Source: Escherichia coli
GTDB taxonomy: Bacteria; Pseudomonadota; Gammaproteobacteria; Enterobacterales; Enterobacteriaceae
Length of the DNA: 64,000 bases
Strand: one strand, 5' to 3'
Assembly: GCF_050920415.1 (NCBI RefSeq)
Contig: NZ_CP169309.1
The translations under genes were made by a program, and so were the position numbers. Each line of letters begins with the position of its first letter. Position 1 is the first letter of the stretch. A model generated the notes under the pieces. The model had not been told where the DNA came from. It saw only the letters and a list, made by a program, of their open reading frames with translations, and searched no databases. Positions 3,326 to 22,197 of this stretch are shown here, piece after piece.

Positions 3326-4453
3326 TTAATCCAGTCCCAGCACACCACGAAGTTGCGCCAGATCTTCCGCCAGCGCAGTAATCGGCCCTTTCAGCGCATT
3401 ACGGTCGGCATCGGTCAGCTTGTCGTAGGTTTCAAAACCGTCTTTAGTACGATATTTCGCCAGAATGGTATCGACCTTTTTGAAGTTAGCATCGACTTTT
3501 GCCAGCAGTTCCGGGTTGGCTTTTTGTAGTTGTGGACGCAGCAGATCGACAATTTTCTGCGAGCCTTCAACGTTAGCCTGGAAGTCCCACAGATCGGTGT
3601 GGCTGTAGCGATCTTCTTCACCGCTGATTTTGCTGGCTGCTACTTCCTCAATCAGTCCGGCTGCGCCGCCGACCACTTTTGAAGGTGGGAAAGCCAGTTC
3701 ACTGATGCGTTTTTGCAAATCGACCACATCGGTATAAAGCTGGTCAGCGTACTGATCCATCCCTTTGGTGGTGTTATCGCCAAACAATGCTTTTTCCAGA
3801 CGGTGGAAACCGGTGAATTTCGGATCGGCGGCTTTTTGCTCGTAATCATCTTCACGGGCGTCAATGCTGCCATCCAGATCGGAGAAAAGTTCAGCAATCG
3901 GTTCAATGCGCTCATAGTGCTGGCGCGTCGGCGCATACAGTGCTTTCGCTTTTTCGATATCGCCTGCTTTAATAGCGTCGGTAAAGGCTTTGGTGTCGGT
4001 CACCAGTTGCGTGGTTTCCGCCATGACATACGCTTTATATGCAGTAATTGCACCACCAAGACTTAACAGCGCATCACTTTGCGCCGCATCCGCCGTTGCC
4101 TCACCTTTGACGATCAACTTCCCTTTCGGGTTAGTCAGCAGACCGCAGGTCATATCGTATTCGCCAGGCTGTAAATTCGCCGTCATTTTCTGGCTAAAAC
4201 CAGGGGCGATATTTTCCCGCTCTTCCACCACCATCACGCCTTTGAGGATCTCCCACTCCAGCGCCTTCTGGCTGTGGTTCTGAATAATGAACTGTGTTTT
4301 CCCGGCGTTAACCGTAATGGTCATCGGTTCGCACTGTTTATCTGTCACAGTGACTTTGACCTGCGGAATATCAGCGGCGTTAGCCATAAAAGCAGAAGAG
4401 AACAGCGCAGCCACGCTCAACTGCAATGCGTTACGGCGGAAGTTAATGGTCAT
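3326..4453 (-). CDS. efeO: EfeO, periplasmic iron-binding component
   Basis: 375-aa ORF with signal peptide, 5 bp downstream of efeB start region; matches recalled EfeO/YcdO. Confidence 0.93.
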
Positions 4454-4510
4454 GACGAGACTATCCCTTTAAAGTATGTTGTAACTAAGCAAGAGTTTGC
4501 GTCATTTTCG

Positions 4511-5341
4511 TTACGCGGAGCGAGACGCTGTCGCCCCTGCGCGCGGCGGCAGAGCAAATGCCACCAGCGCCGGGATGAGATAAATAAACCAGACGGCGAC
4601 TTCGCTGACGCTCGGCGCTTCCTGATAACCAAAGATACCTTCCATCAGCGTACCGAACAGCGAGTGAGTTGAGAGCACCGCGCTCATATCGAAGGCGATT
4701 TCCTGAAAGTGGTTCCACAGCCCGGCTTCATGAAACGCGCGAATAGCACCAGCAGCCAGCCCTGCGGCGACGAAGAGAATAAACAGGCTGGTCCATTTAA
4801 AAAACGCGCCAAGATTGAGGCGAATACCGCCCCAGTAGAGCAGGAAGCCGAGCACCACGGCTGTAGCAAGACCGAGCATTGCACCCAGCGGAGGCCAGAT
4901 ACCGACATCTTGTTGAAACGCCGCCAGCAGGAAAAAGACCGACTCCAGTCCTTCCCTTGCAACGGCAAAAAAGACCATCATCACCAGCGCCCAGCCATGA
5001 TGATTCCCACGCTGCAATGCGCTATCGACTGCCTGTTCCAGTTGCACTTTGACGTTGCGCGACACTTTACGCATCCAGAAAACCATCCAGGTGAGGATCA
5101 CCACGGCAATCACCGCCACGATACCTTCGAACAATTCCTGCTCTTTTTGCGGAAATTCGCCGGTAGTTTCATTAATGAATATACCCAGCCCCAGGCACAA
5201 CGCAGCGGCTAGCAACACGCCAATCCACATGACACCAATCCATCGACCTCGCTGGGTACGCTTAAGATAGCTGGCAATCAGGCTGACAATCAGCGCGGCT
5301 TCAAGTCCTTCGCGCAACATAATGAGAAACGGAACAAACAT
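4511..5341 (-). CDS. efeU: EfeU, ferrous iron permease (FTR1 family), apparently intact
   Basis: continuous 276-codon frame from MFVPFLIMLREGLEAAL; REGLE motifs present; no frameshift visible (K-12 carries a frameshifted copy). Confidence 0.88.
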   Translation of the reverse strand: MFVPFLIMLREGLEAALIVSLIASYLKRTQRGRWIGVMWIGVLLAAALCLGLGIFINETTGEFPQKEQELFEGIVAVIAVVILTWMVFWMRKVSRNVKVQLEQAVDSALQRGNHHGWALVMMVFFAVAREGLESVFFLLAAFQQDVGIWPPLGAMLGLATAVVLGFLLYWGGIRLNLGAFFKWTSLFILFVAAGLAAGAIRAFHEAGLWNHFQEIAFDMSAVLSTHSLFGTLMEGIFGYQEAPSVSEVAVWFIYLIPALVAFALPPRAGATASRSA

Positions 5342-5560: not shown

Positions 5561-7069
<1,509 letters not shown>

Positions 7070-17863: not shown

Positions 17864-17922
17864 ACAGAAAACCGCCGGGATTACCGGCGGTGCAGATTGT
17901 TGACAACGTGCGCATTGTTCAT

Positions 17923-18020
17923 GCCGGATGCGGCGTGAACGCCTTATCCGGCCTACAAAACAGTGCAAATTCAATATATTGCAATCTTCTGGTAGGCCTG
18001 ATAAGCATCGCGCATCAGGC
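17923..18020. repeat. REP/BIME elements downstream of rutG
   Basis: gccggatgcggcgtgaacgccttatccggcctac and inverted gtaggcctgataagcatcgcgcatcaggc palindromes. Confidence 0.8.
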
Positions 18021-18120
18021 AAGCTTACATTTGTCATCAGTATCAACCGCCGGGGTAACCGGCGGTGATGGCTTTTTGACGAGCGACAGACAAAAATGCA
18101 TGCGTCATTGATTAGCCCGG

Positions 18121-18648: not shown

Positions 18649-19263
<615 letters not shown>

Positions 19264-19283
19264 TCTTCAACAGGAGGATACGC

Positions 19284-19511
19284 ATGCCAACTCAAGAAGC
19301 GAAAGCTCATCACGTCGGTGAATGGGCATCTCTGCGCAATACGTCGCCGGAAATAGCCGAGGCCATTTTCGAAGTCGCCGGGTACGACGAAAAAATGGCG
19401 GAAAAGATTTGGGAAGAAGGTAGCGATGAAGTGTTAGTCAAAGCCTTTGCTAAGACCGATAAAGATTCGCTTTTTTGGGGCGAACAGACCATCGAACGTA
19501 AAAACGTTTAA
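19284..19511 (+). CDS. yccJ: YccJ, small conserved protein
   Basis: 75-aa ORF 20 bp after wrbA with RBS caggagga; matches recalled YccJ. Confidence 0.9.
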
Positions 19512-19517
19512 TCCTGA

Positions 19518-19545
19518 ACCTCCCCCGTGGTGAACGGGGGAGTTT
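19518..19545 (+). terminator. rho-independent terminator after yccJ
   Basis: ctcccccg-tggtgaa-cgggggag stem-loop followed by tttt. Confidence 0.7.
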
Positions 19546-19888
19546 TCGATTATTCATTGACCAACGTCTCATGCCCTGTTATTACTGTGAGATATTCAAT
19601 CACGTTATCAAATAAAAAAATCGATATCATTGCGGTAAGCTTGTTATTGATTATAAATATGGGTAATAAGCGATATCCAGCATGAATTTGATTGTACAGA
19701 GTATTTCCTATATAGCCATTGGTTAAATCTTGAAGATAAGATACCTCCGGCTGAAAAATCCATCCCGGCAATGAAGGATGTGATATTTTCGTAATTCTCT
19801 TGCAGAATAAACAACCCTGGATACGCTCTGAATACAAGGAAATTTTCCAATAAATTATTTATTCATCAATACTCCCCGGCGAGGATCA

Positions 19889-20407
19889 TCAAAATATCTC
19901 ATTATCTTTTAAAACTGCCCAGCCCGTTATAACGGACGTTATCTGGCGCACGCTGAAGTGGGCATGATACTCACTTTCATTAAAATGCTCGACATGATTT
20001 GCTAATCGCTTAGCTAGATAATTGACGTTCAGTCTGTGCCAAATTTTTAGCGAAAAATAGCAAATTTCAAGCCGGGAATTTATCAAAGCATCCTCATTTA
20101 CTTCACCATGAACAATAAAGTCACGCATAAACTGCAGGTGTTTAATTAATAAAATCCATTCACTTTCAGTAAGATAGTTTTTCCCACGCAGATTATAATA
20201 CAGAGATTTGATTAATGGGATCTTCTGCTTATGGCGCTTTGACCGCGCTGAGCACAATATTTGTTCTATCAGGCCAAGCGTCCCTTTCTGACGCAACCAG
20301 CACCGGAGTTCAGACTGCGCGCTAATGCCGCGAGCCACCGACAAATGTATTTGGGTAAGCAATGCGTATAAACCTAATAAAAACGCGTCGTGATAATACC
20401 GCTTCAT
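19889..20407 (-). CDS. hypothetical protein (172 aa), second gene of the AT-rich insert between yccJ and agp
   Basis: ATG at 20407 with good RBS (aaggtggg, 5-6 nt spacing); lies 12 bp downstream of the preceding ORF stop; visibly AT-rich; no homolog recognised; C-terminal RLANHVEH resembles an R-x(4-6)-H motif. Confidence 0.6.
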   Translation of the reverse strand: MKRYYHDAFLLGLYALLTQIHLSVARGISAQSELRCWLRQKGTLGLIEQILCSARSKRHKQKIPLIKSLYYNLRGKNYLTESEWILLIKHLQFMRDFIVHGEVNEDALINSRLEICYFSLKIWHRLNVNYLAKRLANHVEHFNESEYHAHFSVRQITSVITGWAVLKDNEIF

Positions 20408-20419
20408 TACCCACCTTTG

Positions 20420-20788
20420 TTATCGTAATTTTTTAAACAAATAATCATATAAAATTTCGGCAATGAATTCTGCATGTTCACGTCGCACAATGACATTCAT
20501 AACGTAATATTGCGCAGCAATTTCATTGATAAAATGTTCAGGCAGTATGAATACGCGTGCATAAGCCGAGTATATTTCCAGTATTTCATTTGAGATGTTT
20601 TCAAGATCAACGCAATAATTTGTCACATCATAAAAAAGATTAGCGTATTTTTTATTAATTATGCTAAGGCATATAAATGGGGCATTTAATTTTTCACACA
20701 ATTGCCAGTGCGTTCTTTCATTTTCTCCCTTCCATGTATACTTCATTTTGTCAGCCATCCTTTGATTTACGCGTCTGAAGTTTACCAC
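20420..20788 (-). CDS. hypothetical protein (108-122 aa), first gene of the AT-rich insert
   Basis: maximal ORF begins at a GTG (20788); ATG candidates at 20758 and 20746 (MKYTWKGENERTHW, weak AGGA about 11 nt upstream); no homolog recognised. Confidence 0.5.
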   Translation of the reverse strand: MVNFRRVNQRMADKMKYTWKGENERTHWQLCEKLNAPFICLSIINKKYANLFYDVTNYCVDLENISNEILEIYSAYARVFILPEHFINEIAAQYYVMNVIVRREHAEFIAEILYDYLFKKLR

Positions 20789-20893
20789 TGTGTCTGGGGT
20801 AAACCATGCGTTCTATGGTAAAAATTATACGAGATGTGGCGCTGCGTAATATTCTGCTCCCTCAATATATTTCTGGTGAATATGTTCCAGGTT

Positions 20894-20926
20894 AATTGGG
20901 AAGATCTGCATGTGATCTTCCCAATT
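20894..20926. other. perfect 13-bp inverted repeat hairpin at the agp-proximal edge of the insert
   Basis: aattgggaagatc-tgcatgt-gatcttcccaatt; followed by a T-rich stretch on the plus strand only. Confidence 0.6.
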
Positions 20927-20955
20927 TTATGACTACAAAATGTCAATAGCCGGGT

Positions 20956-22197
20956 TTATTTCACCGCTTCATTCAACACGCTATCAAACTTATCCATTGG
21001 GCAGAAACCATCAGCGTCTATCGGGCAGCCGGTTAATTCCAGCGTCACGCGCTGAGCCGGAGCCTGCAACGTTAACGCATCAGCATTACGCAACTGTTCC
21101 GCACTCTGGTACACATATTCAATTTTCATCAAATCGCGATTAGCTTTGCTGTCATGCCAACGCTGGAAAACGATTTTGCCGCCAATCGGCGTGCGTTCGT
21201 TCTGGTCATGCAACTGATACGGTTTGAAATCCAGTGCCGTTAACAGAGAGGCAATGTTTGAGTCGTGCCCCACCAGCACCGTGATTTTCGGTGCACTAGT
21301 TCGATCGGTGACCAGTGCTTTGTCGATATAACTGACCAGCGGTTTCGCAACATTGCGCGCCACTTCCGGTGAGGTAAACAGGCTATCCTGGTAGCCGTTT
21401 TTCAGCTTCGACAATACTTTCCACTGTTGGTCAGTTTTGATCTCTCCCCACGCCACCTGATCCATCGGGAAACCTTCGTAGTATTGCAAAGTAAACGCAT
21501 CTACCAGCGAGTTGCCGACTTTCAGCGGCCCGGAAACGCCCGGTTCTTGTTGATACTTCGCGCTAAAGGTGTTTTTGCCATCTACAAGCGAACACTGTTG
21601 CTTCTCTTTACAGGCAGGAGAATCTTTATAGTTAACGATTTTTTCCAGTAGCTTGTAGCTGTCGGTAAGCTGGAGTTTGCCGAGCTCTTTCTCCATTGCC
21701 GCCACCGCCTGTTCACTGAATGCGGCGGAATCATCGGTGATCACCGGGTTAAAGGTTGGGTCCATGGTGCCCATTTTTTCCTGGTGATGAACAGGAATAT
21801 CACACCCGGGGAATGCGCCGGTAATAAAGAACTGCGCGGTCGCGACGGTGCGTTGCAGACTATTGGCATAGGCATAAACGGTGTCCGGCGGCGGGCATTC
21901 ACCCGATTTCACCATCCCCTGCTCTGCCAGCCATTCACGCATGTAATGGCCCATATACACTTCGAGTACTCCCCCTTTAGTGGTGAGCTGCCCACCGGGA
22001 ACGTCCCATTCTGGCCATTTATTCGGCGTCGACTGCTCCAGCACACTGCCATTGTTCGCCAGCGGCGCACGTAAGTTATGGCGGCTCATCATGAGCACTT
22101 GCTGCAACTGATAGCCTTCCGGTACGGTTTGTGCCTGAGCATTTGAAGCGAGTAAAACTATCCCTGCCACAGCTGCGGCGATTAGCGTTTTGTTCAT
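20956..22197 (-). CDS. agp: Agp, periplasmic glucose-1-phosphatase (histidine acid phosphatase)
   Basis: 413-aa frame from [22 protein letters not shown]; RHNLRAP active-site motif; matches recalled Agp. Confidence 0.95.

Follow-up and report, generated by a model that had tools for sequence, protein, structure and literature searches.

An AT-rich tail between agp and yccJ of Escherichia coli as the pseudogene of a putative immunity family

What is the stretch of AT-rich DNA that lies without an annotated gene next to yccJ in a few Escherichia coli strains? The window analysed here is a stretch of 64,000 nucleotides of E. coli DNA (assembly GCF_050920415.1, contig NZ_CP169309.1), and the tail in question occupies positions 19550-19888. 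The initial annotation, made from the letters alone, left three options open, i.e. a degraded third gene of a small gene module, a small RNA, or the recombination scar of an insert.

The module between agp and yccJ

The order of the locus is rutG, ymdF, wrbA and yccJ (all on the plus strand), then a 1.4-kb AT-rich module whose genes are on the minus strand, and then agp. The features are as follows.

19520..19542, plus strand: hairpin of the intrinsic terminator of yccJ (terminator scan and comparison with K-12)
19550..19866, minus strand: pseudogene of module gene 3, 317 bp (alignment to intact copies)
19889..20407, minus strand: module gene 2, 172 aa, intact in the window (NCBI annotation)
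20420..20746, minus strand: module gene 1, 108 aa, intact (NCBI annotation)
20956-22197: agp (allele compared with those of L006, L007 and L023)

Comparison with K-12 places the start of the module no more than about 8 bp from the T-run of the yccJ terminator. In K-12 and in almost all other E. coli the stop codon of agp follows directly after this terminator, and the spacer is 37 bp. The module is present in five of 5426 complete E. coli genomes, namely those of the window strain, N3, N96, WL297 and 2013C-4282. Positions 19200-21100 of the window are 100% identical to E. coli MFDS1022581. A search of the literature on the yccJ-agp spacer found nothing relevant.

The two ends of the module and the neighbouring spacers show some further peculiarities. 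The open reading frame of gene 1, as called mechanically, has 122 aa from a GTG (20420-20788, minus strand), whereas NCBI has it begin with the ATG at 20746, and this shorter form of 108 aa is backed by a homolog from a plasmid of Phytobacter. The 209-bp spacer between agp and gene 1 contains a perfect 13-nt inverted repeat, AATTGGGAAGATC n7 GATCTTCCCAATT, at 20894-20926, which has no T-run after it on the minus strand and which could be a terminator of agp or an operator of the module. In E. coli AB66 (L038:640-800) a REP/BIME-type element sits within the yccJ-agp spacer with the terminator hairpin of yccJ duplicated on either side, and a REP cluster resembling it is found in the window at about 17890-18050, between rutG and ymdF. 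Other E. coli with odd yccJ-agp spacers were considered as bearers of module remnants and rejected: one of these spacers contains a REP element, and in the other case it is only the agp allele that diverges.

The remnant of a third gene

The initial description of the tail as AT-rich holds: its 339 bp have a GC content of 34.8%, as compared to 37.3% for the whole module and 50.9% for the window. Its sizeable minus-strand ORFs are only the two that start with TTG, of 95 aa (19550-19837) and 68 aa (19644-19850), and the list of ORFs contains in addition one of 52 aa on the plus strand that starts with GTG. In E. coli MFDS1022581, whose genome is identical, NCBI annotates no gene at the place of 19550-19888. 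The longest stop-free stretch of the tail is nevertheless 102 codons, versus 53.5 +/- 13.3 in 5000 shuffles, of which 0.5% reach 102; in other words, the open frames are longer than expected by chance in AT-rich DNA, which hints at a coding past.

The remark that there are only TTG starts without a ribosome binding site is correct for the list of ORFs but not for the DNA, since an ATG with a GGGGAG in front of it is present at 19866-19864. The frame from this ATG runs into a TAA after three codons, and it is for this reason that it is missing from the list. The position of the binding site is purine-rich in all aligned copies, i.e. GGxGAG or GGxGGG, and GAxGAA in L009/L010.

The initial annotation proposed a comparison with other versions of the insert, and a third intact gene is indeed found in several Escherichia assemblies. 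N3, which is 94.5% identical over the module, has an annotated 104-aa CDS with an ATG start (WP_042004103.1) at the position of the tail. In a large protein collection the close clusters have 105 aa (P0002, from GCA_024754905.1), 104 aa (P0001) and 100 aa (P0003), and the contigs of these relatives carry agp, a 108-aa gene, a 172- or 177-aa gene, the 100-105-aa gene and then yccJ in convergent orientation. The window copy and the intact copy of L007, which has the same flanks, share 93.4% nucleotide identity over 319 aligned positions. Once its lesions are repaired the window copy encodes 105 aa, 96 of which are identical to the intact L007/P0002 protein, and in a tblastn comparison residues 4-85 and 84-105 of gene 3 fall into two different frames of the window. 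The tail is the pseudogene of the last gene in an operon of three (108, 172 and 104-105 aa) that a minority of Escherichia have between agp and yccJ. The dead gene takes up 317 of its 339 bp, and the remaining 22 bp separate it from gene 2 and contain the ribosome binding site. Of the three initial options it is the degraded gene that stands, with three disabling lesions mapped.

19872..19877, minus strand: Shine-Dalgarno sequence GGGGAG, 5 nt upstream of the original ATG (read from the sequence)
19855..19860, minus strand: lesion 1, a 2-bp deletion in an A-run (A5 to A3, 19858-19860; alignment with L007)
19644..19646, minus strand: lesion 2, a CAA to TAA nonsense mutation at codon 75 (G to A at 19646 on the plus strand; alignment)
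19614..19620, minus strand: lesion 3, a +1 insertion in a homopolymer T-run (7 versus 6; alignment and tblastn)
19644..19850, minus strand: 68-aa TTG ORF, codons 7-74 of the dead gene in the original frame, its TTG being an internal Leu codon
19550..19837, minus strand: 95-aa TTG ORF, the last ~22 codons of which (DNVIEYLTVITGHETLVNE) are in the original frame and the rest out of frame

The first lesion brings a TAA (19857-19855) into frame at codon 4, just behind ATG-AAT; it is common to the window, WL297 and 2013C-4282 and absent from N96, N3 and L007. The second terminates the 68-aa ORF and takes off the last helix of the protein. It is common to the window, WL297, 2013C-4282 and N96, i.e. 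four of the five complete genomes, and for this reason it is probably the oldest. The third shifts the C-terminal 20-odd codons to the frame of the 95-aa ORF. It is unlikely that the lesions are assembly errors, since two other complete genomes share them.

The relatives of gene 3 were collected by an exhaustive phmmer (HMMER) search of 1.84 billion representative proteins with a cut-off of E<=1e-3. There are 49 representative relatives, nearly all of them of about 100 aa, with the common motif GMY..Y....FI.GMD....G..L.GF..WL. A word-indexed search with the profile of the family gave only 10 clusters, and a genome-locus search with the family alignment (A5) gave no loci. Two matches in several stretches, P0014 and P0019, turned out on reading to be spurious, as they are repeat proteins (low-complexity, SBBP-like). 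The confident AlphaFold model of the intact protein (pLDDT 91, pTM 0.83) is a small bundle of five helices with a long C-terminal one at residues 81-103, and the protein is probably cytoplasmic.

Where it is intact, gene 3 is a real gene, given that dN/dS among the intact copies is 0.17-0.38 and that the variable sites are in excess at third codon positions (9/13/26 at positions 1/2/3, p=0.007); the intact copies are under purifying selection. Elsewhere the gene has been lost in different ways. The N96 copy has its own nonsense mutation at codon 23 plus a -1 indel. In Escherichia albertii GCA_001514595.1 (L021:5539-7299), where the module is at the same site, gene 3 is cut to 50 aa and an IS3-family element lies between the truncated gene and yccJ. 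Judging from the aligned copies gene 3 has thus decayed more than once, with independent inactivations shown in other lineages. In N3, WL297 and 2013C-4282, three of the five complete genomes, a frameshift shortens gene 2 to 119 aa, and gene 1 is the only module gene intact in all five; four of them have the identical protein, WP_000878101.1. A two-gene module of gene 1 and an intact gene 3, without gene 2, is found in L009/L010 (SRR7799232, SRR31920192). These two assemblies are Escherichia-like, and their wider flanks are unlike those of E. coli: rutR adjoins ymdF, and there are different genes upstream of agp.

A part of the window copy might still be translated, if ribosomes started at the ATG at 19866, stopped at codon 4 and reinitiated at the TTG at 19850. 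This would give a 68-aa fragment comprising helices 1-4, perhaps with part of the function. The ATG and the GGGGAG are intact, the TTG is 4 nt past the premature TAA, and the ORF retains the original frame together with the conserved GMD and GF..WL motifs. However, we consider this unlikely. Three independent lesions have accumulated, and the fragment lacks the long C-terminal helix (81-103) that is part of the bundle. Two of its substitutions moreover affect conserved residues: M19L replaces a nearly invariant residue of the family, and G47R a commonly conserved Gly of GF..WL. The sister genomes carry further lesions, which is the pattern of relaxed selection.

A family in the immunity position of toxin loci

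The pseudogene reading leaves the question of what the intact gene is for. None of the 49 family members matches Pfam at E<=0.01, and there is no match for the family in NCBIfam, PADLOC or PHROGs. Scans of the three module proteins and the two TTG ORFs against Pfam, PADLOC, NCBIfam and PHROGs likewise gave nothing meaningful; the matches to Rad10, DNase_II and DUF4260 (E 0.03-0.07) are sub-threshold noise. The family is uncurated and belongs to none of the curated Imm families.

The genomic neighbourhood of the relatives is more telling. In Hahella sp. CR1 the family member P0040 (L016/L017) starts 6 nt past an Rhs gene, the last piece of which encodes RHS repeats, the RHS core end, a PT-TG pre-toxin domain and a tip of ~93 aa. 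P0040 and two other members, P0006 (L013/L014) and P0007 (L015), all begin 2-6 nt after ORFs with a homologous tip, and the ~93-aa tips of these loci are 46-57% identical (E 3e-26). P0006 and P0007 are much closer to the E. coli protein than the Hahella member is, each with E ~3e-12 in the exhaustive search.

As an independent test, loci were fetched from 100,044 species-representative genomes by the putative toxin tip alone. Ten loci were retrieved, i.e. those of a Deltaproteobacteria MAG, Cellvibrio (L027), six Streptomyces, a Myxococcales MAG and Nonomuraea, and in nine of them the next ORF after the tip matches the HMM of the gene 3 family (E 4e-15 to 5e-24). Taken together with the three earlier loci (L013/L014, L015 and L016/L017) there are 13 loci, and a family member is found directly downstream of the tip and co-oriented with it in 12 of these (11 or 12 of them distinct), with gaps of ~2-30 nt. 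The carriers of the tip among the retrieved loci are Rhs proteins that have a PT-HINT pre-toxin domain, and one ALF-repeat protein.

The tip itself (seen at L016:7699-7992, at L015:755-1054 and in L026-L035) sits on Rhs proteins of Proteobacteria and on a Streptomyces protein with ALF repeats. It has an invariant Cys, His and Asp and the pattern GC..CAR ... W.HH.VVV.GRVYDAF ... FGF. No sequence match was found for it in Pfam, NCBIfam or the PDB, and its structure model is too weak to assign a fold. In Streptomyces sp. LBL (L028) two pairs of tip and family member stand in tandem.

By this arrangement the gene 3 family appears to occupy the immunity position of polymorphic toxin loci, and from gene order and homology we infer that the gene 3 protein is an immunity protein. 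The intact protein would then bind and neutralise the toxin domain when a competitor injects it. The toxin tip is absent from the 64-kb window and from every Escherichia locus fetched, and the Escherichia copies, having no adjacent toxin, would be orphan immunity genes that provide protection only. We regard it as quite probable that the tail is the pseudogene of a gene from such a family, the intact form of which would neutralise a toxin and would be an orphan in Escherichia.

Two observations count against too close a reading. The Escherichia protein is only 24-38% identical to its toxin-linked relatives, and immunity proteins are usually specific; for these reasons the Escherichia protein may recognise another partner or act otherwise. 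In addition, the relatives in L018-L020 are solitary among unrelated genes.

The other two genes of the module have similar relations. A homolog of gene 1, 54% identical, is found on plasmid pTMTA97303 of Phytobacter diazotrophicus (L037:3844-5333), where it starts 3 nt after an unannotated ORF (3844-4998) for an orphan Rhs C-terminal fragment, in an array that includes an AHH toxin, an Imm43 protein and a TNT-related toxin, which points to gene 1 as another orphan immunity gene. A homolog of gene 2, 29% identical, is found in Proteus mirabilis H63 (L036:1232-6480) directly behind the C-terminal tip (5569-6000) of a locus with DcrB, prePAAR/PAAR and Rhs. In the H63 record the reading frame continues from the tip into the gene 2 homolog without a stop codon, and the Rhs gene is broken in two near the core end. 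We note that the PLSDB entries NZ_OL790811.1 and NZ_OL790812.1, the gene tables of which are almost empty (45 features), are Proteus mirabilis replicons of ~4.08 Mb and are evidently chromosomes filed as plasmids. The plasmid search found no homolog of gene 3. All three genes of the module look like immunity genes without their toxins, and because all three have relatives behind toxin tips, the module is best read as a decaying, toxin-less cluster of orphan immunity genes.

Genes 2 and 3 might instead have been a toxin-antitoxin or another two-component pair with no relation to interbacterial toxins, the likeness of gene 3 to a family in immunity position being one of shared fold only. They are small adjacent genes without known domains, 22 nt apart, and they decay together in WL297 and 2013C-4282. 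However, gene 3 occurs with gene 1 and without gene 2 in L009/L010, the pair has no match in PADLOC, and the homolog of gene 2 sits behind an Rhs toxin tip. Moreover, P0006 and P0007 stand out at E ~3e-12 among 1.8 billion proteins, which speaks for homology and not for a chance fold. A pair of this kind is therefore highly improbable.

In the window strain the tail most likely yields no functional protein and would only form the untranslated 3' end of the transcript of genes 1 and 2. The chance that it acts as a regulatory small RNA, the initial suggestion, or as a structured element in the 3' UTR of the module is very slim. It is AT-rich DNA without an intact ORF downstream of an operon, and it has a promoter-like site (19679-19650, minus strand) and a terminator-like hairpin (19780-19761, minus strand). 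On the other hand, the counts of such sites are at or below the expectation from shuffles, the hairpin falls within the stretch that encodes the conserved FIAGMDFS motif, Rfam gives no match at E<=1, and the fold z-scores are -0.57 and -0.76. The variation between copies is codon-like, with the excess of third-position substitutions given above.

Origin of the module and its known counterparts

The idea of a junction scar, i.e. an att site or the end of a mobile element left by the integration of an insert, can be set aside as having hardly any probability: the low GC content of the module (37% versus 51%), its absence from 5421 of 5426 complete E. coli genomes, its position abutting the yccJ terminator and the short similarity TTATTCA / TTATTTCA at the two junctions speak for it, but the gene remnant and the 22-bp spacer account for the whole tail, the TTATT(T)CA strings are the stop and last codons of two minus-strand genes, and neither an integrase nor a terminal inverted repeat nor a real direct repeat is present. 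No significant repeats flank the module and there is no recombinase inside it.

The word insert is itself doubtful, as E. albertii and divergent lineages of E. coli have the module at this site between agp and yccJ too. Because of this shared site, a loss of the module from most E. coli seems at least as likely as a gain. The divergence of the module alleles (78-92%) is equal to or above that of the flanks. Between the window and L023, wrbA and yccJ are 99% identical, the module genes 86-89% and agp 94.7%; by these values the module alleles are older than the E. coli flanks. Ancestral presence followed by widespread loss, or allelic exchange via the flanks, would fit these values at least as well as insertion. 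Among the E. coli genomes searched, the same 1.4-kb unit was found neither at other chromosomal sites nor on a mobile element with matching ends.

Differences are also seen outside the module genes. The agp alleles differ by ~5% between E. coli strains in which wrbA and yccJ are 99-100% identical (window versus L006, L007 and L023), and the terminator loop just past the yccJ stop differs between strains with and without the module. Since both the loop and the agp alleles differ, the divergent block runs from the yccJ stop into agp.

Orphan immunity genes and arrays are known from polymorphic toxin, T6SS-Rhs and CDI systems, e.g. the arrays of Vibrio cholerae (PMC5361080), the Rhs orphan immunities of Serratia (PMC10539506) and the orphan immunity genes of gut Bacteroidales (PMC12247911). 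The module is like these arrays in that small genes of immunity-position families are clustered without a toxin gene and in that it is strain-variable, AT-rich in comparison to the host and often decayed. It differs from them in its location, which is away from T6SS, Rhs and CDI loci, not on a recognisable mobile element, and at one fixed site between two housekeeping genes in several Escherichia species. Its families are absent from Pfam and NCBIfam, and its protective role is putative.

The resemblance to the pairs of Rhs C-terminal toxins and RhsI immunity proteins (PMC3150448) lies in the relatives: those of gene 3 begin 2-30 nt after Rhs-CT domains, and the homologs of genes 1 and 2 likewise follow such domains. 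In contrast, there is no Rhs core, PAAR or CT domain within the 64 kb of the window, which has only the immunity-like genes, the third of them dead. In size, all-helical fold and genomic position, and in being fused at times to other immunity-like domains (P0039), the gene 3 family resembles the Imm1-Imm74 and SUKH immunity families of Pfam, and it is set apart from them by the lack of any Pfam match at E<=0.01 (0 of 49 representatives) or NCBIfam match. These Pfam families were reportedly described by Zhang et al. in 2012.

As a pseudogene the tail is no different from ordinary bacterial ones: two of its lesions are indels in A/T-runs, the third is a C to T nonsense mutation, and related strains carry other lesions. 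The tail is ordinary in kind, a pseudogene that would belong to the orphan-immunity class. Its decay may have come about because the cognate toxin was met too rarely to keep the gene, so that protection stopped paying.

The tail itself matters little: annotation pipelines are right to call no protein here, and a pseudogene flag would be better than a blank. What is gained is a first lead to the function of three Escherichia 'hypothetical proteins', which are probably encoded by orphan immunity genes, and an uncurated putative toxin domain of ~93 aa that is paired with an uncurated putative immunity family of ~100 aa in 12 of 13 loci and can be tested by co-expression. As a small, non-mobile case in Escherichia, the module would also add to what is being learnt about bacteria that keep, and later lose, antidotes to toxins which they do not produce. 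A broader proposal, for and against which we see an equal case, is that the module is an 'immunity-only' cluster of three genes at a fixed site across Escherichia, each gene coming from a different family of Rhs-toxin immunity proteins, with gene 3 belonging to an uncurated pair of a Cys-His-Asp toxin domain and a five-helix immunity protein in Proteobacteria and Actinobacteria. If this is true, the decay states of the individual strains would record which competitors' toxins each lineage still meets.
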